Below, one piece after another: positions 314 through 58,549 of a stretch of 64,000 nt of DNA. Each line of letters starts with the position of its first letter. Position 1 is the stretch's first letter. Origin of the DNA: Verrucomicrobiota bacterium (GTDB taxonomy: Bacteria > Verrucomicrobiota > Verrucomicrobiia > Opitutales > Opitutaceae); the NCBI GenBank assembly GCA_025361935.1, contig JANYJB010000006.1, positions 3,344-67,343 of the forward strand, given 5' to 3'. Position numbers and translations under genes: made by a program. The notes beneath the pieces are model-generated. The model was not told the origin of the DNA and made no database searches. It saw only the letters and a list, made by a program, of their open reading frames with translations.

Positions 314-773
314 TGGTTTTGGGGCTGGATCGTCGCTCCAAGTTCTTTGATCCCACGCGGGCGGGTAACGCCGTCCGCAGACTAATACAGCTTGGAGAGG
401 AAAGTCCGGACACCGCAGGGCAGGATGCCGCACGAGCTTCACGGCAAGTGCGGGCGGCGCGTTTCAAGGCGCGCCGACGGCCAGTGTCACAGAGAATATA
501 CCGCCGCGCGGGCAACCGCGAGGTAAGGGTGAAAAGGTGGGGTAAGAGCCCACCGCGTCGCCAGCAATGGCGGCGGCACGACAAACCCCTTCCGGTGCAA
601 GGCAAAATAGGTGGCTGGGCGGCTCGTCCTTTAGCCACGGGTATGCCGCACCTTCCGCGCTTCGCGCAAGCGGGCAGCGGAGGGCTCGTTCGCCGCAAGG
701 CGAACGTGAGAGAAATGACGATCAACCACCGCAAGGTGGACACACAGAATCCGGCTTACCGGCCCCAAAACCA
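314..773 (+). ncRNA. rnpB: RNase P RNA (bacterial type A)
   Basis: Hallmark GAGGAAAGTCCGG near 397 and ACAGAATCCGGCTTA near 744; P1 pairing TGGTTTTGGGGCTGG / CCGGCCCCAAAACCA; AGGGTGAAAAGGTGGGGTAAGAGCCCACCG core; several GNRA-capped hairpins. Confidence 0.95.
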
Positions 774-22034: not shown

Positions 22035-23312
22035 ATGCCGGCCCATCCCACATTTCGCGAGGCGCTGAGGTTTTGGCTGAAGCTGGGATTTATCAGCTTC
22101 GGCGGACCCGCCGGGCAAATCGCGATCATGCAGCACGAGCTGGTGGAGCGCAAAAAATGGATCGGGCAGGAGCGGTTTCTGCATGCGCTCAATTTCTGCA
22201 TGCTGCTGCCCGGGCCGGAGGCGCAACAACTGGCGGTTTACTGCGGCTGGCTGCTGCATCGCACGCGGGGCGGGATCGTGGCGGGCGTGTTGTTCGTGCT
22301 GCCGTCGGCGGTGATTTTGTGGGTGTTGAGCTATGTCTATGTCGCCTATGGCGAGGTGCCGTGGATTGCGGCGATTTTCTACGGGCTGAAGCCGGCGGTG
22401 ATGGCGATCGTGTTCGCGGCGGTGCTGCGGATCGGAAGCAAGGCGCTTAAAAACGGTGTCATGTGGGGGATCGCGACGGCGGCGTTCGGGTTGATCTTTT
22501 TTGCGAAAATGCCGTTTCCGGCGATTGTGTTTGGCGCGGCGCTGATCGGCTTCGCGGGCGGGCGGCTGGGGTGGAGCGCGTTGACCCCAACGCGCTCGGA
22601 TGAGGGGACTCAAACGAACGCGTTGGGGTCAACGCGTTCCACCTGGGTTTACTCGGCGCGGGTGGTGGCGGTGTGCGGTGGGCTGTGGGCGGCGCCGCTG
22701 GTCGCGGTGGGACTGTGGCAGGGGTGGTCGGGCACGCTGGCGCAGGAAGGGTTGTTTTTCAGCAAGGCGGCGATGGTGACGTTTGGCGGGGCCTACGCGG
22801 TGCTGCCGTATGTCGCGCAGCAGGCGGTGGAGACTCATTCGTGGCTGGCTGCGCCGCAGATGCTCGATGGGCTGGCGTTCGCCGAGACGACGCCGGGGCC
22901 GCTCATCATGGTGCTCCAGTTTGTGGGGTTCATGGGCGGGTGGAACCATCCGGGGGCGTTGTCTCCCCTGGTGGCGGCGACGCTCGGCGCGGCGATCACG
23001 ACGTGGGTGACGTTTGTGCCGTGCTTCCTGTGGATTTTTTTAGGTGCGCCGCACATCGAGCAGTTGCGCGGCCAGAAGGTTGTCACGGCGGCGCTCGGCG
23101 CGGTGACGGCGAGCGTGGTGGGCGTGATCCTGAATCTCGCGGTGTGGTTTGGCTGGCACGTGCTCGTGCCCACGGGAACGTGGGCGAGCGTGGACTGGTT
23201 TGCGGCGGCGGTGGGCGCGGGGGCGTTTGTGGCGCTGCACCGGTTCAAGGTGAACTTGATCGCGGTGATCGCGGCGAGCGGGGCGTTGGGGTTGGCGTGG
23301 AGCTGGGTGTGA
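22035..23312 (+). CDS. chrA: Long-chain chromate efflux transporter (CHR family)
   Basis: KLGFISFGGPAGQI, LLPGPEAQQ, TFGGAYAVL, ETTPGPLI; start moved to ATG 22035. Confidence 0.92.
   Translation: MPAHPTFREALRFWLKLGFISFGGPAGQIAIMQHELVERKKWIGQERFLHALNFCMLLPGPEAQQLAVYCGWLLHRTRGGIVAGVLFVLPSAVILWVLSYVYVAYGEVPWIAAIFYGLKPAVMAIVFAAVLRIGSKALKNGVMWGIATAAFGLIFFAKMPFPAIVFGAALIGFAGGRLGWSALTPTRSDEGTQTNALGSTRSTWVYSARVVAVCGGLWAAPLVAVGLWQGWSGTLAQEGLFFSKAAMVTFGGAYAVLPYVAQQAVETHSWLAAPQMLDGLAFAETTPGPLIMVLQFVGFMGGWNHPGALSPLVAATLGAAITTWVTFVPCFLWIFLGAPHIEQLRGQKVVTAALGAVTASVVGVILNLAVWFGWHVLVPTGTWASVDWFAAAVGAGAFVALHRFKVNLIAVIAASGALGLAWSWV
22570..22643. repeat. Palindromic repeat family A, copy 1 (in frame inside chrA)
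   Basis: GGTGGAGCGCGTTGACCCCAACGCGCT...AACGCGTTGGGGTCAACGCGTTCCACC; near-identical arms occur at 49929-50007 and 54026-54129. Confidence 0.9.
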
Positions 23313-23342
23313 GCGACGGCCAATACCGCCTGGTGAGGGGGG

Positions 23343-23426
23343 ATCTTTCTGTTTATTCTTTATCTTAATCTTTCTCGTCCGGCCCGGTGCGGTCGGGTCG
23401 GAACTGACGAAAGAGAAAGATTAAGA
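23343..23426. repeat. Pyrimidine/purine inverted repeat family B, diverged copy
   Basis: TCTTAATCTTTCTC (23363-23376) / GAGAAAGATTAAGA (23413-23426), a perfect 14-bp inverted repeat. Confidence 0.7.
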
Positions 23427-23550
23427 GGGCGGAGGGGGGCGAGGTAGGCGGTGCGGCGGCTGGTGCGATTTTAGGACTGATCGTCGCCTGCCAGCAGGCT
23501 CCTGCGTCTGAGCAGTGCGGCAGGCGGAGCAAGTTACACGGAAAGCGCGC

Positions 23551-28182: not shown

Positions 28183-28418
28183 ATCGCCTGCAAGCAGACC
28201 CGTGCGGTTGAGCCGTGCGCAGCGCCGGGCGTGTGACGCGTAGGGAAATCGTTCTCGTTCTCATACTCGTTCTTCGTTCTCGATCCGAAACGGATGAGGA
28301 GAGAACGAGTAGGAGAACGAAGAACGAGAACGATCAGGAGCGGCTGGAGAGGGGAAATATCGCCTTCAAGCAGACTCCTACATGGCAGAGGCGGAATCGC
28401 GCATAAATGCGCTCCTAC
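28183..28418. repeat. Repeat hotspot: three GTAG-type REP half-copies and a family B inverted repeat
   Basis: ATCGCCTGCAAGCAGAC (28183), family B ATCGTTCTCGTTCT...AGAACGAGAACGAT (28248-28334), ATCGCCTTCAAGCAGACTCCTAC (28359), ATCGCGCATAAATGCGCTCCTAC (28396). Confidence 0.75.
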
Positions 28419-29748: not shown

Positions 29749-29858
29749 ATCGTTCTCGTTCTCTTAATCGTTCTTCGTTCTCGATCAGGCGGGGCGGAAA
29801 AAAGGGAGAACGAGAAAGAGAACGAAGAACGAGAAAGAGAACGAAGAACGAGAACGAT
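29749..29858. repeat. Family B inverted repeat between sufU and sufS
   Basis: ATCGTTCTCGTTCTCTTAATCGTTCTTCGTTCTC ... iterated GAGAACGAGAAAGAGAACGAAGAAC ... GAGAACGAT. Confidence 0.85.
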
Positions 29859-30292
29859 TAGGAGGCGGAGGGCGGCTGCTTTAGGGCTTCGAGGGCGGCG
29901 TGCCAGCCGAGGGTGGCGCATTTGATGCGGGCGGGGAAGGCGTGGACGCCGGCGAAGGCCGCGAGCTCGCTGAGCTCCTCGGGCGCCTTGCCGGTGGTGA
30001 CGATTTCCTTGAACTCGTTGAAGAGCGTCTCGGCCTCGGGGGCGGTCTTGCCCTTGACCTGCGTGGTCATGAGGGAGGTCGCGGCCTGGGAGATGGCGCA
30101 GCCGGAGCCCTCGAAGCCGATGGCGTCCACGCGGCCGGCACCGTCGAGGTGGAGGAAAACCGTGCAGTTGTCACCGCAACTGGGGTTGTCGCCGGTGGCC
30201 ACGCGGTTGGCGGTCGGCGGCTTGCCGCGGTTGCGGGGGCGCTTGTTGTGGTCGAGGATGACCGACTGGTAGAGATCGGTGAGGTCGGACAT
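29858..30292 (-). CDS. sufU: SufU (IscU/NifU-like) Fe-S assembly protein
   Basis: LYQSVILDHNKRPRN, NPSCGD, GCAISQA, PARIKCATL. Confidence 0.93.
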   Translation of the reverse strand: MSDLTDLYQSVILDHNKRPRNRGKPPTANRVATGDNPSCGDNCTVFLHLDGAGRVDAIGFEGSGCAISQAATSLMTTQVKGKTAPEAETLFNEFKEIVTTGKAPEELSELAAFAGVHAFPARIKCATLGWHAALEALKQPPSAS

Positions 30293-32478: not shown

Positions 32479-32568
<90 letters not shown>

Positions 32569-35760: not shown

Positions 35761-37119
35761 ATGTCCGCTCCCGCTCAAAAACGCATCATTTTCCAGCACA
35801 TCGACGAGCCCGGCTACACCGACGACCTCGCGTGCTACCTCAAGCACGGCGGTTACGAGGTGATGAAACGCGCCTTCGCCCGCCCGCCCCAGGAACTCAT
35901 CGACGAGGTCAAGAAATCCGGCCTGCGCGGTCGTGGCGGCGCGGGTTTCCCCTGCGGCGTGAAGTGGGGTCTCGTTGACCGCAAGAGCGGCAAGCCGATC
36001 TACCTCATCGTCAACGCCGACGAGTCCGAGCCCGGCACTTTCAAGGACCGTTACATCATGTATCAGGACCCGCACCAGTTGATCGAGGGCACGATCATCT
36101 CGTGCTTCGCGAACAACGTGAAGCAGGCCTACATCTACATCCGCGGCGAAATGGCCGAGGGTGCGATCATTCTCGAAAAAGCCATCGCCGAAGCCCGCGC
36201 CGCCCACTTCGTCGGCCCGAACATCCTCGGCTCGAACTACAGCTGCGAAATCTTCGTCCACCGTGGCGCTGGTGCCTACATTTGCGGCGAGGAAACCGGT
36301 CTCATCGAGTCCCTCGAAGGCAAGCGCGCCAACCCGCGCATCAAGCCCCCGTATTTTCCGGCCGTCCTCGGACTCTACCAGTGCCCGACGATCGTGAACA
36401 ACGTCGAGACGCTCTGCCACGTTAAGTATATCGTCGATGTCGGCGGCGAAGCCTTCACCAAGATCGGCACGCCCAACAACACCGGCACACGCATTTTCTG
36501 CGTTTCCGGCCACGTGCAGCGCCCCGGCTACTACGAGTTTCCCGCCGGCACCATCACGATGGGCCAGCTCCTTTACGACGTCTGCGGCGGCCCGCTTCCC
36601 GGACGCATCTTCAAGGCCGTGATCCCCGGCGGCTCGTCCGCCAAGGTCATGCGCTTCGGCGAACGCTACAAGGGCAAGCGCAAGGTCGGCGCCGACATGG
36701 TTGATTACGATTGGGGTGTCGAGGACGTGCCCATGGATTTCGACTCCCTCGCGATGGTTGGCACGATGGGCGGCTCCGGTGGCGTCATCGTCATGGACGA
36801 CACCGTCAACATGGTCGAGGCCCTCGCCAACATCAACGCGTTCTACTCCCACGAGTCCTGCGGCCAGTGCACGCCCTGCCGCGAAGGCTCCCTGTGGATG
36901 AAGAAAATCTCCACCCGCATGGTCCACGGCGACGCCCGTCCCGGTGACGCCGCCCTCCTCAAAAGCGTGGCCGACCAGATTCCCGGCCGCACCATCTGCG
37001 CGTTCGGCGAAGCCTGCTCATGGCCGACCCAGAGCTTCTACCTGAAGTTCAAGGACGAGTTCGATGGTTACTCCGACGCCAAGAAAACCCTTCCCGCCGA
37101 CCGCCGCGTCCTCGTCTGA
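35761..37119 (+). CDS. nuoF: NADH-quinone oxidoreductase subunit F
   Basis: GLRGRGGAGF, NADESEPGTFKDR, GAGAYICGEET, ESCGQCTPCREG. Confidence 0.97.
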   Translation: MSAPAQKRIIFQHIDEPGYTDDLACYLKHGGYEVMKRAFARPPQELIDEVKKSGLRGRGGAGFPCGVKWGLVDRKSGKPIYLIVNADESEPGTFKDRYIMYQDPHQLIEGTIISCFANNVKQAYIYIRGEMAEGAIILEKAIAEARAAHFVGPNILGSNYSCEIFVHRGAGAYICGEETGLIESLEGKRANPRIKPPYFPAVLGLYQCPTIVNNVETLCHVKYIVDVGGEAFTKIGTPNNTGTRIFCVSGHVQRPGYYEFPAGTITMGQLLYDVCGGPLPGRIFKAVIPGGSSAKVMRFGERYKGKRKVGADMVDYDWGVEDVPMDFDSLAMVGTMGGSGGVIVMDDTVNMVEALANINAFYSHESCGQCTPCREGSLWMKKISTRMVHGDARPGDAALLKSVADQIPGRTICAFGEACSWPTQSFYLKFKDEFDGYSDAKKTLPADRRVLV

Positions 37120-37141
37120 TCCACCTTCTTTCTCTCTCGCA

Positions 37142-38812
37142 ATGATCCAGCCTGCCAAACCCGAGCTCGTCACCGTCAACATCGACGGCAAGGAGATCGC
37201 CGTGCCGAAGGGCACCAACGTCATCGAAGCCGCGCGCATGGTGAACGTTGACGTGCCCCACTACTGCTACCACCCGAAGCTCGCGGTGGTTGGTAACTGC
37301 CGCATGTGCCTCATCGAAATGGGCATGCCCGCCGTCGATCCCGCCACCAAGGCCCCTGTCATCGACCCCGCCACCGGCAAGCAGAAGATCAACTGGATTC
37401 CCCGCCCCCAGATCGGTTGCGGCACCAACGTCTCCCCCGGCCTCCACGTCAAGACCACCAGCCCGATGGTCAAAGACGCCCGCGAAGGCGTGATGGAGTT
37501 CCTCCTCATCAATCACCCGCTCGACTGCCCCATCTGCGACCAAGCCGGCGAGTGCAAACTCCAGGAGCAGGCCACTGGCTACGGCCGCGGCTACTCCCGC
37601 TTCGTCGAGCAGAAAAACGTCAAACCCAAGCGCACCCAGCTCGGGCCCCGCGTCACCCTCGACGACGAACGTTGCGTGCTTTGTTCACGTTGCATCCGTT
37701 TTTCCCGCGACATCGCCGGCAAAGATGTTCTCGGTTTCGTGGACCGCGGCAGCTACTCCACGCTCACCTGCCATCCCGACAAGAAGCTCGATCACAATTA
37801 CTCGCTCAACACGGTGGACATCTGCCCCGTCGGCGCGCTCACCTCGACGGATTTCCGCTTCAAGATGCGCGTCTGGTTCCTCAAACAGACGAACACCATC
37901 GACACCGAGTCCTCCGTCGGCGTGAACACCGTCGCCTGGTCCCGCGAAGGCGTGCTCTACCGCATCACCCCGCGCCAGAACGACGAGGTCAACGACACGT
38001 GGATGGCCGACTCCGGCCGCGTTCTCTATAAACAGGTCGCCGCCGCTGACCGCCTGAAGTCCTCCGACACCGTCAACATTCTCGTCACGAAAGCCGCCGA
38101 GTTTTTCAAGTCCGGTTCCGTCGCCGTCGTCGGCTCCGGTCGCAGCTCGGTTGAAGAGCAGTTTCTCACCAAGAAACTCGCCGCCGCCCTCAAGGTCTCC
38201 GTCTCCCTCGTCTCGCGCACCGCGCCGGGCGATAAGCTCCTCATTTCCGCCGACCGCAATCCCAACATCCGCGGTGCGCTCGTCACCGGCCTCATCTCCG
38301 AGCTGCCATCCGCGCAGCTCACCGGCCTCGCCGCCGACATCGACGCGGGCAAGGTCAAGACCGTCGTCTCCGTTGGCGAAGATCTCGCCGCCGCCGGCCT
38401 CACCGCCGCGCAGCTCGCCAAGGTTTCCATCGTCTATCTCGGCACCCACGCCAACGCTACCAGCGCCGCCGCCAAGGTGGTTATCCCGACGCTCACCGTC
38501 TTCGAAAAAGCCGGCACGTTCGTGAACCAGCAGTTCCGCATCCAGAAGTTCGCCAAGGCCGTCCCCGGTCTGGCTGGCGCCTACGACGACCTTGTCGTCC
38601 TCTCCAAGCTCACCGTCGCCGCCGGCGGCGCTTCCGCTGCCGACGAGATCAACGCGCTCTGGACTGCCATCGCCGCCGAGGTTCCCGCGCTTTCCGCGAT
38701 GCTCTACAAGAACATCCCCGAAACCGGCCTGCTGCTCGACGGCACCGCCTGGGCCGGCCTGCCCTTCGCCGAGGGCGAGACGCTTCACTATAAACCCGCC
38801 GCTACGATCTAA
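37142..38812 (+). CDS. nuoG: NADH-quinone oxidoreductase subunit G (short form)
   Basis: CYHPKL..GNCRMCL, NHPLDCPICDQAGEC, CVLCSRC, DICPVGAL; ATG 37142. Confidence 0.93.
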   Translation: MIQPAKPELVTVNIDGKEIAVPKGTNVIEAARMVNVDVPHYCYHPKLAVVGNCRMCLIEMGMPAVDPATKAPVIDPATGKQKINWIPRPQIGCGTNVSPGLHVKTTSPMVKDAREGVMEFLLINHPLDCPICDQAGECKLQEQATGYGRGYSRFVEQKNVKPKRTQLGPRVTLDDERCVLCSRCIRFSRDIAGKDVLGFVDRGSYSTLTCHPDKKLDHNYSLNTVDICPVGALTSTDFRFKMRVWFLKQTNTIDTESSVGVNTVAWSREGVLYRITPRQNDEVNDTWMADSGRVLYKQVAAADRLKSSDTVNILVTKAAEFFKSGSVAVVGSGRSSVEEQFLTKKLAAALKVSVSLVSRTAPGDKLLISADRNPNIRGALVTGLISELPSAQLTGLAADIDAGKVKTVVSVGEDLAAAGLTAAQLAKVSIVYLGTHANATSAAAKVVIPTLTVFEKAGTFVNQQFRIQKFAKAVPGLAGAYDDLVVLSKLTVAAGGASAADEINALWTAIAAEVPALSAMLYKNIPETGLLLDGTAWAGLPFAEGETLHYKPAATI

Positions 38813-38819
38813 ACCCAGG

Positions 38820-38947
38820 ATTTTACAGAAGGAAACGAAGGTAACAAAGAGTATCCCGTTTATCTCCGCTCCAAGTTCCAAGCGCCTTACCCACTGACAT
38901 AAGAAAACCCGCGACTCTTCGTTTCCTTCGTTATCTTTTGTAAAAAT
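38820..38947. repeat. ~128-bp MITE-like element family C, copy 1 (nuoG-nuoH)
   Basis: Terminal inverted repeats TTTTACAGAAGGAAACGAAGGTAACAAAGAGT / ACTCTTCGTTTCCTTCGTTATCTTTTGTAAAA (27/32 by hand); similar along its full length to 40746-40875. Confidence 0.85.
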
Positions 38948-38959
38948 TTCCGTTCCGAA

Positions 38960-40174
38960 ATGTTCGACTTCTACTTCCACCTCCCGCTCATCGTCCGCCT
39001 CGTCCTGCAGGCGATCGCGGTGATCCTGTTCATGTTTCCGGTCGCCGCCGCGTGCTCGATGGCCGAGCGTAAAGTCTGCGCCTGGATTCAAAACCGCCCC
39101 GGCCCGAACCGCACCATCGCGCCCATTGGCGGCTTGCTCACGCCTCTCGGCATCGTTGGCCGCATCCCGTTTCTCGGGCCGTTCCTCCAGCAGATGGGCA
39201 TCTTCCAGCTCGCAGCTGACGGCGGCAAGTTCACCTTCAAGGAAGACCCTGTTCCGGCCCACGTGAACAAGTTCTACTTCATCCTCGCCCCCATCGTGGC
39301 GATGATCCCCGCGCTCACCACCGTGGCAGTCGTTCCCGTCGGCGCCTACTACGCCGTGGTCAATGGTCAGACGATCCTCCAGCCCATCGTGCTGGCCAAC
39401 GTCGATATCGGCCTGCTCGCCGTGTTCGCCGTTTCCTCGCTCGGTGTTTACGCGGTGATTCTCGCCGGCTGGGCATCGAATTCCAAATACGCCTTCCTCG
39501 GCGGCGTCCGCGCCTCCGCCCAGCTCGTCTCGTATGAACTCGCGATGACGCTCTCCGTGCTGCCGTCCTTCCTCTGGATGAACAAGCCAGGCGGGCAGGG
39601 GACCCTGAGCCTCTTCGACGCCGTGCAAATGCAGAACGGCGTCTGGCACGGGTTCTCGATGGCCAGCCTCCACGGCATGTGGGGCGTGTTCTACATGCCT
39701 ATCTCGGCCTTCATTTTCCTCGTCGCCCTTTTCGCCGAAACCAACCGCGCTCCGTTCGACATGGCCGAGGCCGAGTCCGAACTCGTGGCGGGTTTTCACA
39801 CCGAATACGGCGCCTTCAAGTGGTCGCTCTTCTTTCTCGCCGAGTATTGCCACATGATCATCGGCTCCGCCGTGTGCATCCTGCTCTTCTTCGGCGGCTG
39901 GAACATCCTCCCCTGGATTCCGCTCACCACGCTCATTGACTGGCTCTCGCACTTCATCCCGTTTGCCGCGCATCCGCTCTTTATGGGTCTGGTCGGCATC
40001 GGCATCTTTGTTGGGAAAGTCTTTTCATTCATCTTTTTCTTCATGTGGGTCCGCTGGACGCTGCCGCGTTTCCGCTACGACCAAGTCATGCACCTCGGCT
40101 GGAAGAAGCTCCTGCCTCTCTCCATCGCCAACCTGATCTTCTACACGCTCGGCATCGCCCTGCTGCAAAAGTAA
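38960..40174 (+). CDS. nuoH: NADH-quinone oxidoreductase subunit H
   Basis: ERK..AWIQNRPGPNR, ASNSKYA, AETNRAPFD..EAESELVAGFHTEY, RWTLPRFRYDQ. Confidence 0.97.
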   Translation: MFDFYFHLPLIVRLVLQAIAVILFMFPVAAACSMAERKVCAWIQNRPGPNRTIAPIGGLLTPLGIVGRIPFLGPFLQQMGIFQLAADGGKFTFKEDPVPAHVNKFYFILAPIVAMIPALTTVAVVPVGAYYAVVNGQTILQPIVLANVDIGLLAVFAVSSLGVYAVILAGWASNSKYAFLGGVRASAQLVSYELAMTLSVLPSFLWMNKPGGQGTLSLFDAVQMQNGVWHGFSMASLHGMWGVFYMPISAFIFLVALFAETNRAPFDMAEAESELVAGFHTEYGAFKWSLFFLAEYCHMIIGSAVCILLFFGGWNILPWIPLTTLIDWLSHFIPFAAHPLFMGLVGIGIFVGKVFSFIFFFMWVRWTLPRFRYDQVMHLGWKKLLPLSIANLIFYTLGIALLQK

Positions 40175-40194
40175 TTTCCCAACTCTCCCGCGCC

Positions 40195-40734
40195 ATGGCC
40201 GTCATCCAAGTCGAACGCAAACCGCTCACCTTCGCCGAGCGCACCTACATTCCCCAGATCATCGGGGGGTTGTGGGTCACCCTTAAGCATTTCTTCCAGC
40301 CCACCGTCACGCTCCAGTATCCCGAGCAGCGCCCCGAGATTCCCAAGGGCTACCGTGGCGTGCCCACGCTGGTGAAAGATCCCAACGGTCGCGAAAAGTG
40401 CGTCTCCTGCCAGCTCTGCGAATTCGTCTGCCCGCCCAAGGCCATCCGCATCACCCCCGGCGAAATTTCCGCCGAGTCCGACAACGCCCACGTCGAGAAA
40501 GGCCCGCAGGCTTTCGACATTGATATGTTGCGCTGCATCTACTGCGGCCTGTGCCAGGAGGTCTGCCCCGAGGAGGCGATTTTCCTTCAGAACCAATTCT
40601 CCATGTCCGGCTACACCCGCGCCGAGATGGTCAACAACAAGGAACGCCTCTACGAACTCGGCGGCACGCTGCCCGACGAGCATCTCAAGTGGGACAAGAA
40701 AAAGACCGCCGAAGAACACGGCAACGCCCATTAA
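40195..40734 (+). CDS. nuoI: NADH-quinone oxidoreductase subunit I
   Basis: CVSCQLCEFVCP and CIYCGLCQEVCP; ATG 40195. Confidence 0.96.
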   Translation: MAVIQVERKPLTFAERTYIPQIIGGLWVTLKHFFQPTVTLQYPEQRPEIPKGYRGVPTLVKDPNGREKCVSCQLCEFVCPPKAIRITPGEISAESDNAHVEKGPQAFDIDMLRCIYCGLCQEVCPEEAIFLQNQFSMSGYTRAEMVNNKERLYELGGTLPDEHLKWDKKKTAEEHGNAH

Positions 40735-40745
40735 GCCCTTAATCC

Positions 40746-40875
40746 ATTTTACAAAAGGAAACGAAGTTAACGAAGAGCCTCCCGTTCATCGCGGCTCCAA
40801 ATTCCAAACGCTTTAGCCTTTGATCTAAAAATCACCCGCGCCGCTTCGTTACCTTCGTTATCTTCTGTTAAAAAT
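40746..40875. repeat. MITE-like element family C, copy 2 (nuoI-nuoJ)
   Basis: ATTTTACAAAAGGAAACGAAGTTAACGAAG ... CTTCGTTACCTTCGTTATCTTCTGTTAAAAAT. Confidence 0.85.
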
Positions 40876-40883
40876 TTTCGCCC

Positions 40884-41402
40884 ATGTCCTCCGACATCTT
40901 CTTCTATCTCTTCGCCGCTTTCACCACGGGCACGGCCCTGGCGGTGGTGCTCACCAAGAACACCGTCGCCTCGGCGCTCTCGCTCCTGCTCTGCCTCGTC
41001 GGCGTGGCCGGCGTCTTCATCCTGCTCGACGCCTTCCTCTTGGCCGCGCTGATGGTGTTTGTTTACGCGGGCGCCGTCGTCGCGTTGTTCCTCTTCATCA
41101 TCATGCTCCTCGATGCGCAGGGCGGCGACCGCAAGCCGTTCAAAAAGACGGCTTACGTCTCCGGCGGCATCGCCTTCGCGTTGCTCGTAGTCGGCGTGCT
41201 TTCGTTCTGGAAGAGCGGTCAGCAGACGACCGGCGAGCTCGGCTCCATCGTCCCCGTGGGCTCGACGCTCAAGAACTACGGCGAACAGCTCTTCACCACC
41301 TATCTCCTGCCCGTGCAGATCGTCGGCTTCCTGCTCCTCATCGCCATGCTCGGCGTGATCGTGCTCAGTAAAAAATTTGAAGGCTTGGAGGATATCAAAT
41401 GA
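40884..41402 (+). CDS. nuoJ: NADH-quinone oxidoreductase subunit J
   Basis: [25 protein letters not shown]; operon order. Confidence 0.94.
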
Positions 41403-41704
41403 CCGTCGGTCTTAATCATTACCTGCTTCTCAGCGCCGTGCTGTTCGCCATCGGCTTCTTTGGCGTGCTGCTCCGCAAAAACACCCTGGTTATCTACATG
41501 TGCCTTGAGCTCATGCTGGTCGCCTCGACCGTCGCGCTCGTGGCGTTTTCGCGCTACAACAACACGATGGACGGCAATGTCTTCGTTTTTTTCATCCTCA
41601 CCGTGGCCGCCGCCGAGGTCGCCGTCGGCCTCGCCATCATCGTGGCGCTCTTCCGCCGCCGCCAGTCCATCGATGTCGCTGAACTCAACGCGCTGAAAAA
41701 CTGA
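41399..41704 (+). CDS. nuoK: NADH-quinone oxidoreductase subunit K
   Basis: [17 protein letters not shown]. Confidence 0.96.
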
Positions 41705-41708
41705 CGCC

Positions 41709-43607
41709 ATGACGCCCACCTGCATCGCTCTCATCACCCTGCTCACGCCGCTCGTCTCTGCGGCGATCATCGCGCTTTTCCTGCGCAAACAAGGCGCGCT
41801 GTCCTCGACCATTTCGACGCTCGCCGCCGCCGTGGTCGCCGCCGGTGCGCTCATGCTCGCCTTCGGCGGACACCGTGACGCCTCCGTCAACGCCTCCGTC
41901 GAGTGGCTGAGGCTCGGTGACTTCGTCCTGTCGCTCGGCATCAAGTTTGACGATCTCGCCGCCCTCATGCTCTCGATCGTCGGCGTTGTCGGTCTCGCCG
42001 TCCACGTCTTCTCGCTCGGCTACATGCACGACGATGCCTCGAAGGCCCGCTTCTTCGGCGGTCTTTCGATTTTTATGTTTTCGATGATCGGCATCGTCCT
42101 CGCCGACAATCTCCTGATGATTTTCATCTTCTGGGAGCTCGTGGGTTTCAGCTCCTACGTCCTCATCAACCACTATCACGAAAAAGCGTCCGCCTCCGAC
42201 GCCTCGAAAAAAGCCTTCATCGTGAACCGCGTGGGCGACTTCGGTTTCCTCCTCGGCATCATCATGTGCTACTGGGCCAACGGCACGGTCAACCTCACCG
42301 AGCTCGGCCATCTTGGCGATACCCACGCCCTTGTTTACAGCCGCCTCATCCCGCTGCTCCTGTTCTGCGGCGCGGTCGGCAAGTCCGCCCAGATGCCGTT
42401 GCAGGTGTGGTTGCCCGACGCGATGGAAGGTCCGACGCCCGTCTCTGCCCTCATCCACGCCGCGACCATGGTCGCCGCCGGTATCTACATGCTCTGCCGC
42501 ATCCAGGTGCTCATGGTGCCCGATGCGTTGACGGTAATCATGTGGGTCGGCGCGATCACCGCGTTTTATGCGGCCCTCTGTGCGATCACTCAGAGTGACA
42601 TTAAAAAAGTCCTCGCTTACTCCACGCTCTCCCAGCTCGGCTACATGGTCGCCGCCTTTGGCCTCGGCTCTCTCGAACTGGTGCCCGATGGCAAGGAAGG
42701 CACGCTGGTGGTCATCTCCGCCGGCGTCGGCGCCGCGATGTTCCACCTCACGACGCACGCCTTCTTCAAGGCGCTGCTCTTCCTCGGTTCCGGCTCCGTG
42801 ATCCACGGCTGCCACCACGAGCAGGACATCTTCAAGATGGGCGGTCTTAAGAAAAAGATGCCGTTCACCTTTGTCACCTTCACGATCGGCGTCGCCGCGA
42901 TCTGCGGTCTGCCGTTCCTCTCCGGCTTCTTCTCCAAGGACGCGATCCTCCACCTCGCCCAGGAGAACAACAAAGCGGTCTTTGCGATCCTCGCGCTCAC
43001 CGCCGTCCTCACCGCCTTCTACATGGTGCGCATGTGGAAACTGACGTTCCTCGGCCAGCCCCGCAGCCACGAGGCCGAGCACGCCCACGAGGGTGGCCTG
43101 TCCATGACCGCCCCGCTTGCCGTGCTCGCGGTGCTGGCGCTTGTCGGCGGCTACGCCGGTCATTTTTTCAACATCTATGGCCGCGCCTTCCAAGGCGTCT
43201 GGTCGCAGATCCCCTTCGCCGAAGGTGCCGAGCCCTACGTCACGAGCATCGTGATCCTCGTAGTCGGTGCCGGTGCCGCGCTCTATTTCTACAAATCCGC
43301 CGCGACCGACACGCTGGAGGACAAAGCCCCCGCCGTTTTCGGATTTCTCTCCGTGGTCAAAGGCTCTCCCGACGCCGTTTACGACTGGTATGTCGCCAAG
43401 GTTCAGCAGCGTTTCGCGATGCTCCTGGAGTTCTTGGAGCGCATTTTCCTCTCCGGCCTGATCATCCGCGGCATCGTCTCCGGAACGGTCGGGCTTATCG
43501 GCATCGGGGCGCGTGCGCTCCATGTCGGCAGCCTGCACGCTTATGTTTACTGGTTCCTGTTTGGCTCCGCCCTCCTCTGGGCTTACGCCGCCGGATGGCT
43601 TTTCTAA
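41709..43607 (+). CDS. nuoL: NADH-quinone oxidoreductase subunit L
   Basis: GKSAQMPL.VWLPDAMEGPTPVSALIHAATMV, HAFFKALLFLGSGSVIH. Confidence 0.97.
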   Translation: MTPTCIALITLLTPLVSAAIIALFLRKQGALSSTISTLAAAVVAAGALMLAFGGHRDASVNASVEWLRLGDFVLSLGIKFDDLAALMLSIVGVVGLAVHVFSLGYMHDDASKARFFGGLSIFMFSMIGIVLADNLLMIFIFWELVGFSSYVLINHYHEKASASDASKKAFIVNRVGDFGFLLGIIMCYWANGTVNLTELGHLGDTHALVYSRLIPLLLFCGAVGKSAQMPLQVWLPDAMEGPTPVSALIHAATMVAAGIYMLCRIQVLMVPDALTVIMWVGAITAFYAALCAITQSDIKKVLAYSTLSQLGYMVAAFGLGSLELVPDGKEGTLVVISAGVGAAMFHLTTHAFFKALLFLGSGSVIHGCHHEQDIFKMGGLKKKMPFTFVTFTIGVAAICGLPFLSGFFSKDAILHLAQENNKAVFAILALTAVLTAFYMVRMWKLTFLGQPRSHEAEHAHEGGLSMTAPLAVLAVLALVGGYAGHFFNIYGRAFQGVWSQIPFAEGAEPYVTSIVILVVGAGAALYFYKSAATDTLEDKAPAVFGFLSVVKGSPDAVYDWYVAKVQQRFAMLLEFLERIFLSGLIIRGIVSGTVGLIGIGARALHVGSLHAYVYWFLFGSALLWAYAAGWLF

Positions 43608-43619
43608 AACGACTTCGTG

Positions 43620-45158
43620 ATGAACTCCCTGCCTGTTGACCTCCTTCTGCTGTCCATCGCGACGCCTCTGGTCGCCGCCCTGGCGATCTCCCTGGGGATG
43701 CCCCTGCGCCTCGCCAAGGGCCTTGCCGCCGCGGCGTTCGCCGTGCCCGCGCTCATCGCGCTGTTCCTCTGGAGCCGCTTCGCGGGAGAGACGCAGCACG
43801 CCACCTACGCCTTCCTCTCGGTTTACAACACCGGGTTGCAGGCCGTCGGCATCCATCTCTCGCTGGGATTGAACGGCATCTCCCTGCCGCTCTTCGTGCT
43901 CGCCGGCGTCGTCGGCCTCGCCGCCGGTCTCTACGCGATCCAGTCCAACGCCGAACGCCTCAAGACCTACCTCGTCCTCTTGCTCGTTATGCAGGGCGGC
44001 TTGATGGGCGTCTTCGCCAGTGTGGACATCTTCTTCTTCTACTTCTTCCACGAACTCGCGCTCATCCCGACCTTCATCATGGTCGGCATCTGGGGTGGCA
44101 AGGACCGCAACTACGCGGCCATGAAGATGACCATCTATCTCACGCTCGGCGCGATGTTGTCGTTGATCGGCCTCATCGCCCTCTACCACAAGAGCGGTGC
44201 CAACAGCTTCGACCTCATCGCCCTCCGCGCGGCCCTGCTCGAACACGGCCTCAAGGCCGCCGCCTCGAAATACATCTTCGGTCTGCTGATGTTCGGTTTC
44301 GGCATTCTGGTGTCGCTCTGGCCGTTTCACACCTGGGCACCCCTCGGCTACGGCGCCGCCCCCAGTTCCGCCGCCATGCTCCATGCGGGCGTGCTGAAAA
44401 AATTCGGTCTCTACGGCCTCGTCCAGATCGTCCTCCCGCTGCTTCCCCTCGGCGTGGCCGAGTGGGCCCGTCCCCTCGCGCTTCTCGCGGTCGTCGGCAA
44501 TCTTCTCGTGATTGGTTTCATCACCATCGCCCAGCGCGACCTCAAGCAGATGGTCGGTTACAGCTCGGTCATGCACATGGGCTACGCGTTCCTCGGCATC
44601 GCCACCTTCTCGGTGGCCGGCGCGGGTGGCGTTGTCCTGATGATGGTCGCGCACGGCTTCTCCGTCGCGCTGCTTTTCCTCCTCTCGACCAGCATCTATC
44701 ACCGCACCCAGACCTTCGACATGACGGAAATGGGCGGACTCGCGCAAAAAGCCCCCGTCATGGCCGCTTTCTTCGTCGCCGCCACCATGGCCAGCATCGG
44801 TCTCCCCGGCTTCGCCAATTTCTGGGGCGAGCTCGCGATCTTCGTCGCCGCGTGGCAGTTTTCTCCTTTGCTCACCGCGCTCTCCGTCACCGGCGTGGTG
44901 ATTTCCGCGATCTACGGCCTGCGCTCGGCCGCCCGCGTTTTCTTCGGACCGCAGACTGAGGCCTTCGCCAAGGTCGAAGCGACCAAGCCCGTCACCGACC
45001 TCACCTGCTGCGAAAAACTCCCCGCGCTCATCCTGATCGCCGCGCTCTTCTTCGTCGGCTTCTGGCCGCGCTCGATTTCCACCCAGCTCAACTCCGCGAT
45101 CGAGGCCATCTATCACCCGTCCGCCGCTGTCCAGGCTCCCGCCGCGACCGCCAAATAA
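43620..45158 (+). CDS. nuoM: NADH-quinone oxidoreductase subunit M
   Basis: WPFHTWAP, DLKQMVGYSSVMHMG, MASIGLPG..NF.GE. Confidence 0.95.
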   Translation: MNSLPVDLLLLSIATPLVAALAISLGMPLRLAKGLAAAAFAVPALIALFLWSRFAGETQHATYAFLSVYNTGLQAVGIHLSLGLNGISLPLFVLAGVVGLAAGLYAIQSNAERLKTYLVLLLVMQGGLMGVFASVDIFFFYFFHELALIPTFIMVGIWGGKDRNYAAMKMTIYLTLGAMLSLIGLIALYHKSGANSFDLIALRAALLEHGLKAAASKYIFGLLMFGFGILVSLWPFHTWAPLGYGAAPSSAAMLHAGVLKKFGLYGLVQIVLPLLPLGVAEWARPLALLAVVGNLLVIGFITIAQRDLKQMVGYSSVMHMGYAFLGIATFSVAGAGGVVLMMVAHGFSVALLFLLSTSIYHRTQTFDMTEMGGLAQKAPVMAAFFVAATMASIGLPGFANFWGELAIFVAAWQFSPLLTALSVTGVVISAIYGLRSAARVFFGPQTEAFAKVEATKPVTDLTCCEKLPALILIAALFFVGFWPRSISTQLNSAIEAIYHPSAAVQAPAATAK

Positions 45159-45177
45159 CCCGCTTACGTTTCCCGCG

Positions 45178-46713
45178 ATGCCGCACCTAGACCTTCTCAA
45201 AGCCGCCGCCGAGTCCAACCACTGGATGGCGATTCTCCCCGAGCTTCTGCTCGGCAGCCTCGCCCTGTTCCTGCTCGTGCTCGAACTCGTCCTCCCCAAG
45301 AAGCAGCACGACGTCATCCCCGCCGTGGCCATCATCGGCCAGATCGGCATTCTTCTCGGCCTGCTCCTCCGGCTTTATCCCTCGTTTAACGGACAATACA
45401 CCTTCAGCGGACTCCTCCATCACACCTCCAACGGCGAGTTCATGCGGGCGTTTTTCCTGCTCTCTTCGACCTTTGTCTGCGTGCTGGGCACGATCGCCCT
45501 CGCCAAGCAGAAGATGCCCCGCATCGAGTTCTTTAACATCGTGCTCGTTGTCTCGGCTGCGATGATGCTTCTCGCGCAGAGCAACAACTTCATCCTCCTC
45601 TTCGTCGCGCTCGAGACGGTTACGGTCGGGTTCTACATCCTCGTCAGTTATTTCCGCACCAACCCGCGTTCACTTGAAGCCGGCCTCAAATACCTGATCA
45701 CCGGCGCGCTCAGCTCCGGCCTGCTCCTCTTCGGCATCGTCCTCCTCTACGGCGTGGCGGGCAACCCGACGCTCCCCGGCTCCACGGCGAACTCGATGGA
45801 TTTCACCGCGCTGCACACCTTCCTCGCGGCCAACCCCAACAACTTCCTCGCCGCCATCGGCATCGTCCTCGTGCTCTCCGGCGTGGCCTTCAAGATCGGC
45901 GCCGTCCCCTTCCAGATTTGGATTCCCGATGTTTATCAAGGCGCGCCCACCCCCGTGACCGCGTTCCTCGCCGTCGCCTCAAAGGCCGCCGGTTTTTCCA
46001 TCCTCCTCATCCTTATGGGCGTGTTTGCGCCCTACAATCACCTCACGGTCACCGTGCTCTCGCTGATGGCGATGGCGACCATCCTCTTCGGCAATCTCGC
46101 CGCGCTCACCCAGCACAACGTCAAACGACTCATCGGCCTCTCCGGCGTTTCGCACGCGGGTTATTTGTTAATCGGCGTCATCGCGGCCTCCGTGCTGCCC
46201 TCCAATCTTGCCGGCCAAGCCGTGGGCGCGATCTACTTCTACCTGTTCGCCTACCTGCTCGCCTCGTTCGCGGTCTTTGGCGTGATGACGCACGTCGCCG
46301 GTGGCGATGACGCCGATCAGGAACTGGAACACTATTCCGAACTCGCCAAAACCCACCCCTTCCTTGGTGCGGTTCTGGCCATCGGCCTCGGTTCGCTGGC
46401 GGGCATTCCTCCGCTCGCCGGTTTCATGGGCAAGCTCCTCATCTTCGTCGCCGCCTTCAAGGCCGGCCTCTACACGCTACTGGTCGTCGCGATTATCGGC
46501 GTGGTTATCTCGATCTATTACTACTTCGGCTGGATCAAGGCCGCCTTCTTTGAAACCTGGCGCGCGCCGTTGCTCGAAGGCGAAACCGATCCCCGTCCGG
46601 TTCGCACCCCGGTCGGACTCGCCGCCGGCGTCATGCTGGCCTCGCTGGCCGTCGCAACCGTCGTCCTGGGTTTCTACCAAGGCTCGCTGGGCGTGTGGCT
46701 GCTGAACCGGTAG
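45178..46713 (+). CDS. nuoN: NADH-quinone oxidoreductase subunit N
   Basis: EAGLKY, FKIGAVPF..W.PDVYQGAPTPVT, SLAGIPPLAGF.GK. Confidence 0.96.
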   Translation: MPHLDLLKAAAESNHWMAILPELLLGSLALFLLVLELVLPKKQHDVIPAVAIIGQIGILLGLLLRLYPSFNGQYTFSGLLHHTSNGEFMRAFFLLSSTFVCVLGTIALAKQKMPRIEFFNIVLVVSAAMMLLAQSNNFILLFVALETVTVGFYILVSYFRTNPRSLEAGLKYLITGALSSGLLLFGIVLLYGVAGNPTLPGSTANSMDFTALHTFLAANPNNFLAAIGIVLVLSGVAFKIGAVPFQIWIPDVYQGAPTPVTAFLAVASKAAGFSILLILMGVFAPYNHLTVTVLSLMAMATILFGNLAALTQHNVKRLIGLSGVSHAGYLLIGVIAASVLPSNLAGQAVGAIYFYLFAYLLASFAVFGVMTHVAGGDDADQELEHYSELAKTHPFLGAVLAIGLGSLAGIPPLAGFMGKLLIFVAAFKAGLYTLLVVAIIGVVISIYYYFGWIKAAFFETWRAPLLEGETDPRPVRTPVGLAAGVMLASLAVATVVLGFYQGSLGVWLLNR

Positions 46714-46784
46714 GAGCCCATTTATGGGCGATAGCTTGCGCGATAAACAAAAGGTTATCGCATCGCCCGTAAACGGGCTCCTAC
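46710..46784. repeat. GTAG-type REP doublet (REPIN-like), family D
   Basis: GTAGGAGCCCATTTATGGGCGAT ... ATCGCCCGTAAACGGGCTCCTAC; its TAG is the nuoN stop. Confidence 0.85.
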
Positions 46785-46827
46785 GCCGGAAAATACCCTG
46801 AGATTACCAAGGATTTCCTCAACTTCC

Positions 46828-46857
46828 GCGCCGGGCCGAAACGCCCGGCGCTTTTTT
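46828..46857 (+). terminator. Intrinsic terminator of the nuo operon
   Basis: GCGCCGGGC-cgaaac-GCCCGGCGC-TTTTTT. Confidence 0.85.
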
Positions 46858-46877
46858 GCGTCCCGGCTTGGAGCCGC

Positions 46878-47792
46878 TCACTCTGCAAACGCGCTCGTCA
46901 CCGGCTTGCCGTCCCAATCTGCGGGCACCGGGATGCCGAGCAGCCAGAGGGCGGTTGCCGCCGTGTCGCACGTGCCGATGGGTGCGGTGAGTGACGTTTG
47001 TTTTTTCACGCCCTTTCCCCAAGCAATCCACGGGATGATGAGGTCGTCGGGAATGGCTAGGCCGTGGGTTTTGTCATGGCCGCCATGATCGGCCGTCAGG
47101 ATGACCACGCTGGAGTCGGCGATTCCCGCCTTGTTGATCGCATCCATCACGGTCTTCAGCGCGGCGTCGCAGTTGGCAAAAGCCTTGATCTGCTCCGGCG
47201 AACCCCAGCCGTATTTATGGCCGGCGGTGTCGGTGTCGGAAAAATGAATGAAGCACAGATTCGGTTTCAGTCCCTGGGCGAGCGCGGCGGCGAAAGCCTC
47301 GGCCACGGGCTTCGCCTCGACCTTGGATTTTTCCGCAGCTTTCGCATCGGCTGGCAGGTTTGGCAGGGGAAACACAAACGTGTCCACGGTGCCGGGCAGG
47401 TCGAGATGGCGGAACTTCACCTTCCCCACGAACATCGCGGTGGTGAAGCCGTGCTCCTTGGCGATGCTGAAAATCGTGGGCACCTTGACCAGCCCGAGCT
47501 CGGGTTTCCAGTCATTCCAGATGATGTGGTGTTTGAGCGGGGTCACGCCGGTGAGCATCGAGGTGTGCGAGGGCAGGGTGATGCACGGCATGATCGTCTG
47601 AGCCTCCCAGGTATGCGCGCCCTCGGTGGCCATGGACTTGAGGACTGGCATCTCGCTCTGCGCGATCACGGCGGGCTTTCCGCCGTCGAAACTGACGATG
47701 AAAACATGGTCTGCTCGCGGAGCGGCTGCGGACGCGACGACGGCGGTCATCAGAAAAAATCCTGTCAGGCGGGATAAAAACGGGTGATTCAT
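46878..47792 (-). CDS. Exported alkaline-phosphatase-superfamily (NPP/phosphodiesterase) protein
   Basis: Signal peptide, VFIVSFDG, ITLPSHTSMLTG, DTAGH.YGW, LTADHGG; start ATG 47792. Confidence 0.88.
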   Translation of the reverse strand: MNHPFLSRLTGFFLMTAVVASAAAPRADHVFIVSFDGGKPAVIAQSEMPVLKSMATEGAHTWEAQTIMPCITLPSHTSMLTGVTPLKHHIIWNDWKPELGLVKVPTIFSIAKEHGFTTAMFVGKVKFRHLDLPGTVDTFVFPLPNLPADAKAAEKSKVEAKPVAEAFAAALAQGLKPNLCFIHFSDTDTAGHKYGWGSPEQIKAFANCDAALKTVMDAINKAGIADSSVVILTADHGGHDKTHGLAIPDDLIIPWIAWGKGVKKQTSLTAPIGTCDTAATALWLLGIPVPADWDGKPVTSAFAE

Positions 47793-47909: not shown

Positions 47910-49256
47910 ATGAAGGTTACCGGCCTCGCCCTTGTCCCTCCTCCCTCCGCCGCCGACCTGCCCAAGGTCACTCCCGAGCTGCTCGCCTCCGTGCTGGCCC
48001 GCTACTCGCGGAGCAACGAGGGCCTCGCCGCCATCATGGCCAAGGTGGACCTCGCCAACCCCGACGCCTCCATCGACCGCATCCTGAAGTTCGTGGACTA
48101 CGGCCACGCCTCCATCGGCGGCCTCACCGGTGGCCTCGCCATCGCCCTCGACGACGTCTCGATGTGGCTCGCCTATAAAATTTTCGAGATTGCCCAGATG
48201 GCCGACGGCCAGGAGTCGTCCACCCGCTACATCACGATGGACGCGGCCAATCTCCCCGCGCCCTCCGAGATCGGCATCCCCGCCGACCTCGCGCCGCGCT
48301 GGCAGGCGCTCATGGCGAAATCCTTCGCCGCCTATCACGCCGAATATTCCCGCCTCGACGCCCTCGGCACCGCCGAGCCTCGCCGCGTGCGCGTTCCCGC
48401 CGATGCGAAGCCCGCCGTCGTCACCCGCATCCGCAAAAACTACGCGCTCGACCGTTCGCGCTACTTCATCCCGCTGGCCACGCGCACCAACCTTGGCCTC
48501 GTCCAGTCGTCGCGCATGTGGGCCGCGACGGTCAAGCAGCTCGACTCGCTCCCGCATCCCGAGGCGCGCGCCGCCGCCAAGCTCATCCGCGACGAGCTTC
48601 TCAAGATTTCCCCGCGTCTGATGCGCCACAGCTCCGCCGAAAAATCCTATCAGGAACAAGCTCAACAAGAGCTGGCCGCGTCGCTCCGTCTCGGTTTGTC
48701 GCGTCTCTCGACCGCCCCGCTGGCCGACCAGGTGTGGGTTCACGTTGACCGCGTCACGCCGCCATTTCTCGCCGAGGAGCAGCCGGTCGCCGAGGCGCTC
48801 CGCCATCGCGCCAACCGCTACGGCTACCAAGGCACCGCCACCCGCCGCATGCGTGTCAGCTTCGCCTGGAATAACATGGCGGTCGCCGAGCTGCGCGACC
48901 TCAACCGCCACCGCACCGGCCATCGCTACACGCCTTTCATCCAGGCCGGATTTTATCTCCCGCCCGAGATTTCCCACGCGTCCCATCAGGCGCTGCTCGA
49001 CGAACAGGCCGAGCTCACCCGCGAGCTCATGCGGCGCGGGTCCGAGGCGTATGTTTACTCGCTGCTGCTCGGCGCACAGACGCCTTTCGAGCACGGCACG
49101 CACGGCGACAAGTTTATCTACGAGGCCGAGCTTCGCACCGGCATGGGCTCGCACTACCGCTACGCCGAACACCTGAGCGCGGCGCTGAAGGAGTTTTTCA
49201 AACAAGTGCCCGAGGCGCGTGAATGGGTGGTCGAGGGCACCGCCGAGCCGGAGTGA
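47910..49256 (+). CDS. thyX: FAD-dependent thymidylate synthase, long two-domain form
   Basis: LARYSRS, DYGHASIG, QESSTRY, RYFIPLATRTN, RDLNRHR, ELRT..G.H..Y. Confidence 0.8.
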   Translation: MKVTGLALVPPPSAADLPKVTPELLASVLARYSRSNEGLAAIMAKVDLANPDASIDRILKFVDYGHASIGGLTGGLAIALDDVSMWLAYKIFEIAQMADGQESSTRYITMDAANLPAPSEIGIPADLAPRWQALMAKSFAAYHAEYSRLDALGTAEPRRVRVPADAKPAVVTRIRKNYALDRSRYFIPLATRTNLGLVQSSRMWAATVKQLDSLPHPEARAAAKLIRDELLKISPRLMRHSSAEKSYQEQAQQELAASLRLGLSRLSTAPLADQVWVHVDRVTPPFLAEEQPVAEALRHRANRYGYQGTATRRMRVSFAWNNMAVAELRDLNRHRTGHRYTPFIQAGFYLPPEISHASHQALLDEQAELTRELMRRGSEAYVYSLLLGAQTPFEHGTHGDKFIYEAELRTGMGSHYRYAEHLSAALKEFFKQVPEAREWVVEGTAEPE

Positions 49257-49281
49257 CGCCTCCCTCCTCGTCGTCTTTCCC

Positions 49282-49944
49282 ATGAAGTCCCTCCAAACCC
49301 TGCTCTTTGTCCTGCTCGCCGCGCTCCCGCTGGTGGCGCGCGCCGAAGATCCGACCAAGGTCACGCCCGACCAGCGGAACACGCGGCTCGCGCCCGGCAC
49401 GGACAACACCGATACCCGGCTCACGCCCGGCAACACGGACAACCAGCTCCCCTTCAAGCGCGCCGAACGCGTGCAGAACAACCGTTTCACCACGCCCGAA
49501 CTACGTGACAAGAAACTCGCTCCTGTCGGCGACCGCCGCTCGCCGATCGAGGTCAAGGAGACCCGCGACAAGACCATCATCGACCGGAAAGACTACCCCA
49601 AGCCCGAGGTTCGCGAGAACAAGATGAGCCCCCATAACACCCAGATGTTTCAGACCCAGCCGACGGGCGACGCGATCAAGAAATACGACATGGTCGGCAA
49701 GTATCAGAACCGCATGACCGACGCCGCCAACGCGGCGGCGCAGCACCAGCCCAAACTCGAAAAACGCACGACCTTCGACAAAATCAACCGCTTCGTCTTC
49801 CACCGCAACGGCCCCGGCGCCGACGGCGGCAGCCTCGTCACCAAGGCGGGCGGCGGCTCGTCCACGACGGTGTCCGGTGGGACGCAAAAGACGGCGGATG
49901 CCCCGCCGTCTCCACAACTTCAGCCGGCGGGTGGAGCGCGTTGA
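49282..49944 (+). CDS. Hypothetical exported protein
   Basis: Signal peptide MKSLQTLLFVLLAALPLVARA; short internal duplication (NTRLAPGTDN / DTRLTPGNTDN); genome-typical codons. Confidence 0.75.
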   Translation: MKSLQTLLFVLLAALPLVARAEDPTKVTPDQRNTRLAPGTDNTDTRLTPGNTDNQLPFKRAERVQNNRFTTPELRDKKLAPVGDRRSPIEVKETRDKTIIDRKDYPKPEVRENKMSPHNTQMFQTQPTGDAIKKYDMVGKYQNRMTDAANAAAQHQPKLEKRTTFDKINRFVFHRNGPGADGGSLVTKAGGGSSTTVSGGTQKTADAPPSPQLQPAGGAR

Positions 49945-50007
49945 CCCCAACGCGTTGGTTTGAAAGGCGGCTTCGCGGCAACGCGTTGAGGTCAACGCGT
50001 TCCACCC
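49929..50007. repeat. Palindromic repeat family A, copy 2
   Basis: GGGTGGAGCGCGTTGACCCCAACGCGTTG...CAACGCGTTGAGGTCAACGCGTTCCACCC; provides the TGA stop at 49942-49944. Confidence 0.9.
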
Positions 50008-54025: not shown

Positions 54026-54129
54026 GGTGGAACGCGTTGACCGCTGTTGGTTCGACGGAGCGCTGCGGACAACGCGTTGCTTTCGGGAGGCGAAGTTCGG
54101 AGAACGCGTTGAGGTCAACACGTTCCACC
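54026..54129. repeat. Palindromic repeat family A, copy 3 (interrupted left arm)
   Basis: GGTGGAACGCGTTGACC[~27 nt]CAACGCGTT...AACGCGTTGAGGTCAACACGTTCCACC between convergent genes. Confidence 0.85.
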
Positions 54130-58522: not shown

Positions 58523-58549
58523 GATGGAGCCGCTGAACGCGGCTCCATC

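Follow-up and report, generated by a model that had tools for sequence, protein, structure and literature searches.

In a 64,000-nucleotide stretch of verrucomicrobial DNA (the window), the loop between the two domains of a chromate ion transporter, ChrA, has probably been replaced by a GTGG-tagged REP doublet delivered by a RAYT, and this doublet is predicted to be translated and tolerated as a nearly neutral spacer. The gene and the parts of the element are as follows.

22035..23312, + strand: chrA, long-chain two-domain chromate ion transporter of 425 aa, unbroken (ATG at 22035, PF02417 twice, TIGR00937)
22570..22595, + strand: left REP, with GTGG tag at 22571-22574 and a 9-bp stem plus 4-nt loop extending to 22596; encodes (G)WSALTPTR
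22596..22617, + strand: doublet spacer of 22 nt, variable; encodes SDEGTQT
22618..22643, - strand: right REP, inverted; encodes NALGSTRST on the + strand

The chrA product contains two PF02417 stretches, the first at residues 11-173, within one open frame and scores 229 bits on TIGR00937 (cut-off 171.7), identifying it as a long-chain CHR protein (LCHR; TIGR00937, PF02417 twice). It has the same two-domain organization of approximately 400 aa as these proteins and differs from them in that its linker is REP DNA. Homologues begin at the same Met, the closest named relatives being titled Opitutaceae, Rariglobus sp. or Verrucomicrobia, and the predicted function is chromate efflux. Comparison with the orthologue in G012, which over window 36000-47000 is the nearest of five genomes, gave dS/dN values of 0.481/0.051 for the N half and 0.333/0.037 for the C half; the resulting dN/dS of about 0.11 in each indicates that both halves are maintained by purifying selection. 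In an AlphaFold model built from a 16-row alignment, of only moderate quality overall (mean pLDDT 65), residues 185-201 had pLDDT <50 and formed a loop between helices at 161-177 and 200-229. A fold search with this model against the PDB gave no match at E <= 0.001.

A near-perfect 74-base inverted repeat occupies window 22570-22643, between the two CHR domains. Its arms (22570-22595 and 22618-22643) are complementary as DNA at 24/26 positions and are separated by 22 nt, and in the predicted RNA fold both mismatches pair as G-U. The predicted fold of window 22560-22655 has an energy of -74.9 kcal/mol (z = -12.3), with none of 200 shuffles equally stable. A first-pass annotation had proposed that this repeat is in-frame coding sequence, with no stop, in the hydrophilic stretch between the CHR halves, and both points were confirmed: 22572-22643 reads WSALTPTRSDEGTQTNALGSTRST, corresponding to residues 180-203 of the 425-aa ORF, and these 24 residues are the sole clearly hydrophilic run within residues 151-230. 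Across the element one of the three + strand frames is open, that of chrA. The open frame, together with purifying selection on both halves of the protein, suggests that the element is coding, and it is predicted to be read through as a floppy 24-residue spacer. The spacer between the REPs is 12 nt longer in G012 than in the source genome (G000), and contigs of sequencing runs X1-X4 carry the change C22609T (Thr to Ile) within it. An Rfam scan of the window gave no match to the repeat, the matches being confined to an RNase P RNA class A at 363-770 (+) and a tRNA at 32484-32568 (-).

A weight matrix constructed from the arms found 30 matches at >=18 bits in G000 (an assembly of 2.48 Mb, 88% complete) and 0 in a reversed-genome control, bearing out the earlier suggestion of a REP-like family. 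The tag is GTGG in 26 of the 30 arms and GTAG in two, and the pairs of the 9-bp stem, which closes on a 4-nt loop, are kept in 27-30 of the 30 arms, several pairs showing changes on both sides. From this anatomy of tag, stem and loop each arm is a GTAG-type REP, a type defined as a palindrome of 20-40 bp with a 6-13 bp stem and an unpaired GT[AG]G end that is dispersed in many copies, mostly outside genes, and the inverted pair is a REP dimer, or REPIN-like, in that the doublet and its spacer fold into one hairpin. The CGTC terminal tag of Rickettsia RPEs and CGTC REPs is absent, the tag here being GTGG, and the family is thus RPE-like in making protein without being a member of that group. 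The matches group as 20 strong and two weak loci, both arms exceeding the threshold at 10/22, and 14/20 strong loci lie outside genes called by a crude codon-model caller, which missed chrA. Three further composed repeat patterns did not rise above control (0; 1 vs 1; 12 vs 11). Two sibling copies of the chrA doublet are present in the window.

49930..50006, unstranded: second doublet of the same REP family; its left arm gives the TGA stop of ORF 49219-49944
54026..54129, unstranded: third doublet, degenerate, with truncated left arm and 52-nt spacer; intergenic, between convergent genes

These had been described as nearly identical intergenic copies, at 49929 and 54026. Near identity holds for the arms, which match those of the chrA doublet at 25/26 and 25/26 positions in the 49930 copy and at 18/26 and 24/26 in the 54026 copy, but not for the spacers, which measure 25 nt and 52 nt as against 22 nt. 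Similarly, the 54026 copy is intergenic whereas the other reaches into the 3' end of ORF 49219-49944, whose stop it provides, with the orthologous place in G012 arranged likewise. The window also contains, at 46711-46785, a doublet of a second, GTAG-tagged REP family that is multicopy in G012 and G019, the GTAG apparently giving the TAG stop of the gene upstream; searching G000 with a loose pattern for such doublets gave 17 loci, two of them in frame. Further dispersed inverted-repeat families, AG/TC- or AT-rich, lie at 28255-28340, 29749-29864, 58496-58535, 38820-38945, 40746-40872 and 23335-23427, and one of these repeats lies directly after the chrA stop.

The REP pattern was found in 12 of the 41 genomes searched, comprising G000, 10/23 congeners and 1/17 others, with 0 in controls. 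In G008, G010, G017 and G021 a REP stands on both sides of a 150-180-codon frame with HUH and Y---NP motifs, which together are reported as the RAYT signature (PMC6006769), and the three RAYT-like proteins scanned gave 70.6-74.5 bits on NF047646, below its cut-off of 80. Matches to a RAYT-like query were obtained in 6/11 REP-bearing relatives and in five genomes without the REP pattern, and were absent from G012 and from the 88% complete G000 assembly. A REP-flanked RAYT, which the first-pass annotation had suggested looking for, has RAYT-like candidates in these four congeners but none in G000 or G012. REP doublets are likely spread by their own RAYT transposase, and their presence and absence at orthologous sites suggests that they moved in the past. 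No excision joint was seen in contigs of four runs from one study, contigs being prone to drop rare variants. The sole Y1 gene of G000 (L036:1405-2404, on contig C21) encodes a 306-aa transposase-like protein, has flanking 22-nt inverted repeats unrelated to the chrA REP (TIRtron-like) and adjoins a DNA methyltransferase-like frame.

Comparison with relatives indicates what the doublet displaced. The interval corresponding to residues 173-210 is 38 aa in G000, 42 aa in G012 and 46-66 aa in 16 other congeners (full close orthologues, a distant homologue in G016 and a fragment in G017 being excluded), and more widely the linker ranges over 27-66 aa, with a median of 46 aa among 165 homologues. 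Orthologue linkers had been expected to be different or shorter; they are indeed different, but longer (46-66 aa vs 38). As the linker of relatives is longer and not shorter, the REP doublet appears from these alignments to have replaced an ancestral linker, not to be a simple insertion. The older linker common to the 16 congeners has the form RYAPGKF...GHG...RAVIDDAAE...KPTW, and its length of 46-66 aa implies that the doublet swapped about 36 codons for 25. The junctions of the doublet are identical in G012, P0003 and P0004. P0004 has the junctions of G000, but its grouping with G000, G012 and P0003 was marginally rejected (AU p = 0.039), and this placement hints at segment transfer between species. 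Two further ideas about the linker were tried and rejected. Recombination of the G000 linker from the L044/L046/L056 clade was not supported, as sliding-window identity near the linker showed no clear rise beyond one window. A Tyr or His two residues past the Trp, compensating for the lost acidic VIDD, accompanied absence of that motif in 27/28 Y/H rows, but these amount to four independent pairs (median p 0.5). The linkers of the ChrA clade comprising L044, L046, L056, L168, L169, L175, L178, L206 and P0010 have the form GW(S)...YSLR, like the G000 flanks, and this clade, several members of which have SAFA(E/K)ATAD peptides, possibly represents an older repeat-driven rewrite.

Among the 165 pooled ChrA homologues (after removal of duplicates, of five distant sequences and of a truncated locus), the REP peptide is present in seven, namely G000, G012, P0003, P0004, P0005, L105 and L185. 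The first-pass annotation had held that conservation of the peptide in distant ChrA proteins would speak against an origin from the repeat; as a conserved motif it was found in none of them. Topology tests were performed on a 30-row subset with linker columns removed, the groups being set by linker sequence after the first tree had been seen. A grouping of all seven REP-linker ChrAs was rejected (p-AU 2.8e-7), as were groupings of the first four (G000, G012, P0003 and P0004) with L105 and L185 (p-AU 5e-54) and of P0005 with L105 and L185 (p-AU 0.023), while G000+G012+P0003 (p-AU 0.43) and L105+L185 (0.38) were not rejected. Rejection of the joint groupings indicates at least three independent REP entries into the ChrA linker. 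In L105 and L185 a decayed doublet is followed by the retained right half of the old linker (...VIDD...PSW), P0005 retains the left half, and P0004, L105 and L185 have eroded forms of the REP peptide. Decay of the peptide in these older copies makes a tolerated, near-neutral spacer the most likely reading. Tolerance of the CHR linker would also account for its having been entered repeatedly, by the chrA-type REP and by others; the linkers of G005 and G010 (GQDARAT and HGQDAPAT, respectively) match Opitutus terrae GTAG-19 peptides in the table of Di Nocera and coworkers (PMC3733652).

These states suggest how the replacement may have come about. The doublet would have been placed in frame by a RAYT just past the last helix of the N half, a state in which the independent L105 and L185 would still remain, and a deletion would then have taken out what was left of the old linker, so that the terminal Thr codon of the REP came to adjoin the conserved Trp codon. 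The order of insertion then deletion is reconstructed from other lineages, using the junction and the state of L105 and L185. The old linker also reads Thr-Trp at the point where the REP Thr meets the Trp, suggesting a short microhomology. Such an element would presumably survive only where it leaves the frame open and where the protein is indifferent to sequence. The ChrA loop is such a place, taking 27-66 residues of nearly any composition, and in other bacteria the CHR halves also function as separate proteins (PMC8940164).

Intragenic GTAG REPs have been catalogued in O. terrae, where GTAG-17, -18 and -19 are found in genes and GTAG-20 is mostly GTGG-tagged (Di Nocera, De Gregorio and Rocco 2013, PMC3733652). 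As reported there, they occur singly or as dimers, contribute 7-50 aa in frame (20-30 aa for dimers) or supply stops through their ends, and were suggested to form flexible linkers, so that in-frame REPs are a known phenomenon in Opitutaceae. Like the chrA REP, these are tagged palindromes coding inside ordinary proteins, and O. terrae and the closest named ChrA relatives share a bacterial family. They are a nearer precedent than the Rickettsia palindromic elements that had been put forward: RPEs also make protein sequence, as repeat-derived in-frame peptides in unrelated proteins, but are described as CGTC-tagged or longer and without a known dedicated transposase (PMC3733652), whereas the chrA REP has a GTGG tag and a RAYT-like partner, and its nearest counterparts are the intragenic GTAG/GTGG REPs of O. 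terrae. In REPINs (Bertels and Rainey 2011, PMC3116915) two REPs in inverted orientation, with a variable spacer between them, fold together as a single hairpin. Likeness to the REPIN/REPtron arrangement extends to the GT[AG]G tag and to a small transposase with HUH and Y---NP motifs, which in congeners lies between copies of the same REP; in contrast, REPINs are defined there in extragenic space, whereas 6/20 strong loci here touch coding sequence and a RAYT was not found in the G000 assembly.

The chrA REP may be GTAG-20, its tag agreeing with a remark on GTGG in the text of PMC3733652; the first-pass annotation had considered the family possibly undescribed, but that paper may already list it and its RAYT. 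The 70 rows of its table are all GTAG-17, -18 or -19, with chrA REP peptides absent and 'chromate' occurring 0 times, and the chrA locus and coding use of the chrA REP are not listed there. Whereas the O. terrae REPs are treated there as insertions, the ChrA orthologues point to a net replacement and to one linker having been entered independently more than once. On sequence comparison the case is distinctive in apparent replacement as opposed to addition and in at least three independent entries into the linker of one transporter. A literature search, the scope of which excluded most subscription journals, found no paper on REP-derived ChrA linkers. ChrA provides a well-resolved case, with the ancestral linker, an apparent intermediate and replaced and decayed states all in one membrane-transporter loop, and it makes testable both the neutrality of repeat-derived peptides and the effect of a very stable hairpin within an mRNA. 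In proteins of Opitutaceae a variable linker is often repeat DNA, a potential source of error in alignments and in the placing of domain boundaries.

The first-pass annotation had also looked for other coding copies in the genome, and these exist. Four of the 20 strong G000 loci are internal and in frame, one is C-terminal and one supplies a stop, giving 6/20 that touch coding sequence; these counts are lower bounds because the codon-model gene caller missed chrA. The internal in-frame loci of G000 are as follows.

chrA, in the window
LplA-like ligase, contig C57
nitrite/sulfite reductase (NirA-type), contig C85
lipoyl/E3-binding/FabH fusion, contig C105

The REP in the FabH fusion is shared, as a decayed copy, by G012 and G019; the fusion itself (L119; G000 C105:5190-6755), combining lipoyl, E3-binding and FabH parts, is present in all five congeners searched. 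The C-terminal locus is in a MOSC protein (C16), in which a doublet forms the last 26 residues, and the copy is absent from MOSC orthologues of five genomes. At its end this doublet (L120:1064-1143) runs into what may be the GTG start of the following gene, an arrangement that would preserve the overlap of stop and start found in G012. Among 40 further loci from G012, G019 and G008, a subset of the pattern list, six were classed as internal in frame. Distant congeners share a REP site in the LplA-like gene (L117 vs L127) and in the NirA gene (L118 vs L274), with closer ones lacking it.

It has to be considered that permissive loops are actively re-targeted, RAYTs or homologous recombination swapping REPs at occupied sites and moving REP-bearing segments between species; we regard this as unlikely, though not negligibly so. 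At G000 C102:32634-32718 (L247, L281), in a gene whose product is presumably a U32-family enzyme, a doublet of another REP family lies at the codon where G012 and G008 have a chrA-type REP. The LplA-like protein has a clean +9 aa from its REP, a site shared by the distant G017 alone among 22 congeners aligned (0/21 others), and the NirA REP is present in G000 and G008 but absent from four closer genomes. These shared distant sites may reflect repeated insertion or short-segment transfer, and the tree placement of P0004 would also be in keeping with re-targeting. However, frequent insertion into few tolerant loops predicts equal recurrence, and neither a target motif nor an intermediate was found, nor an excision joint in the contigs of the four runs. 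Re-targeting adds to the replacement of a tolerant loop by a REP doublet and does not exclude it. A broader and more speculative proposal, to which we attach somewhat less weight, is that REPs and RAYTs constitute a genus-wide, standing means of rewriting linkers by overwriting, same-codon swaps and interspecies segments, and that the ChrA hairpin could be a co-opted ribosome pause.

Retention of the doublet for a function of its mRNA hairpin or peptide, for instance a ribosome pause between the membrane halves or tuning of mRNA decay, is rather improbable in our judgement. The predicted hairpin is very stable, and between G000 and G012 the arms changed at 1/15 synonymous sites compared with about 31% in the gene (binomial p = 0.03), a slowness that is not predicted by neutrality alone. 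The WSALTPTR frame is moreover used in all independent ChrA cases, and VERVDPNAL appears in four other G000 coding copies. However, the mostly non-coding 49930 copy is nearly as slow, differing between the two genomes at 3/52 arm bases against 1/52 in the chrA copy, so that homogenisation or DNA-level constraint explains the slow arms just as well as would a role in chrA. Selection on the REP linker at the peptide level was not significant, the two genomes differing at 0/39 non-synonymous sites (p = 0.19). Furthermore, the REP is absent from 158/165 homologues, both arms and peptide have decayed in P0004, L105 and L185, and since two frames are open the falling of three events in one frame is a 1-in-4 outcome. 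These observations are consistent with the doublet being a tolerated, nearly neutral spacer.

That the hairpin splits chrA functionally, through termination or through a restart that yields two short-chain CHR halves, or that the gene is in decay, is very improbable. CHR halves do occur as separate short-chain proteins, in pairs, in other bacteria (PMC8940164), the doublet contains a GAGG-like run and a TTG in frame, and the codon-model gene caller left chrA uncalled. On the other hand chrA is a single open frame with no in-frame stop, a point on which the earlier interpretation had been made to depend, and the frame is kept through changes of spacer length in four species-level sequences. dN/dS is low in both halves, as given above, the TTG lies hidden within the stem and the hairpin is not followed by a U-tract.

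A repeat-induced mis-join, conceivable because palindromes can break assemblies and because contigs of runs X3 and X4 end inside the repeat, is refuted by the same junctions in G012, P0003 and P0004, which are separate, diverged assemblies. Also against it, X1 and X2, from one study and perhaps from the source sample itself, contain a 738-nt contig that spans the element with C22609T as its single difference. A search of metagenome contigs with the exact junction pattern gave 0 matches, run X9 (probably DNA) yielded pieces of relatives alone, and RNA runs were not listed among the sequencing runs.

In-frame repeats in G000 extend beyond the chrA-type REP. Two other repeat families have 3/27 and 2/17 loci, respectively, that are internal and in frame, both lower bounds. 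The LplA-like protein, of 276 aa, has two repeat inserts, and at its second loop (G000 C57:54408-54482, L123-L129) the repeat-like peptides differ by congener, reading CRSLLAGD...SPASRLL, CRSPLMGD...SPINGLL or CGSELARD.
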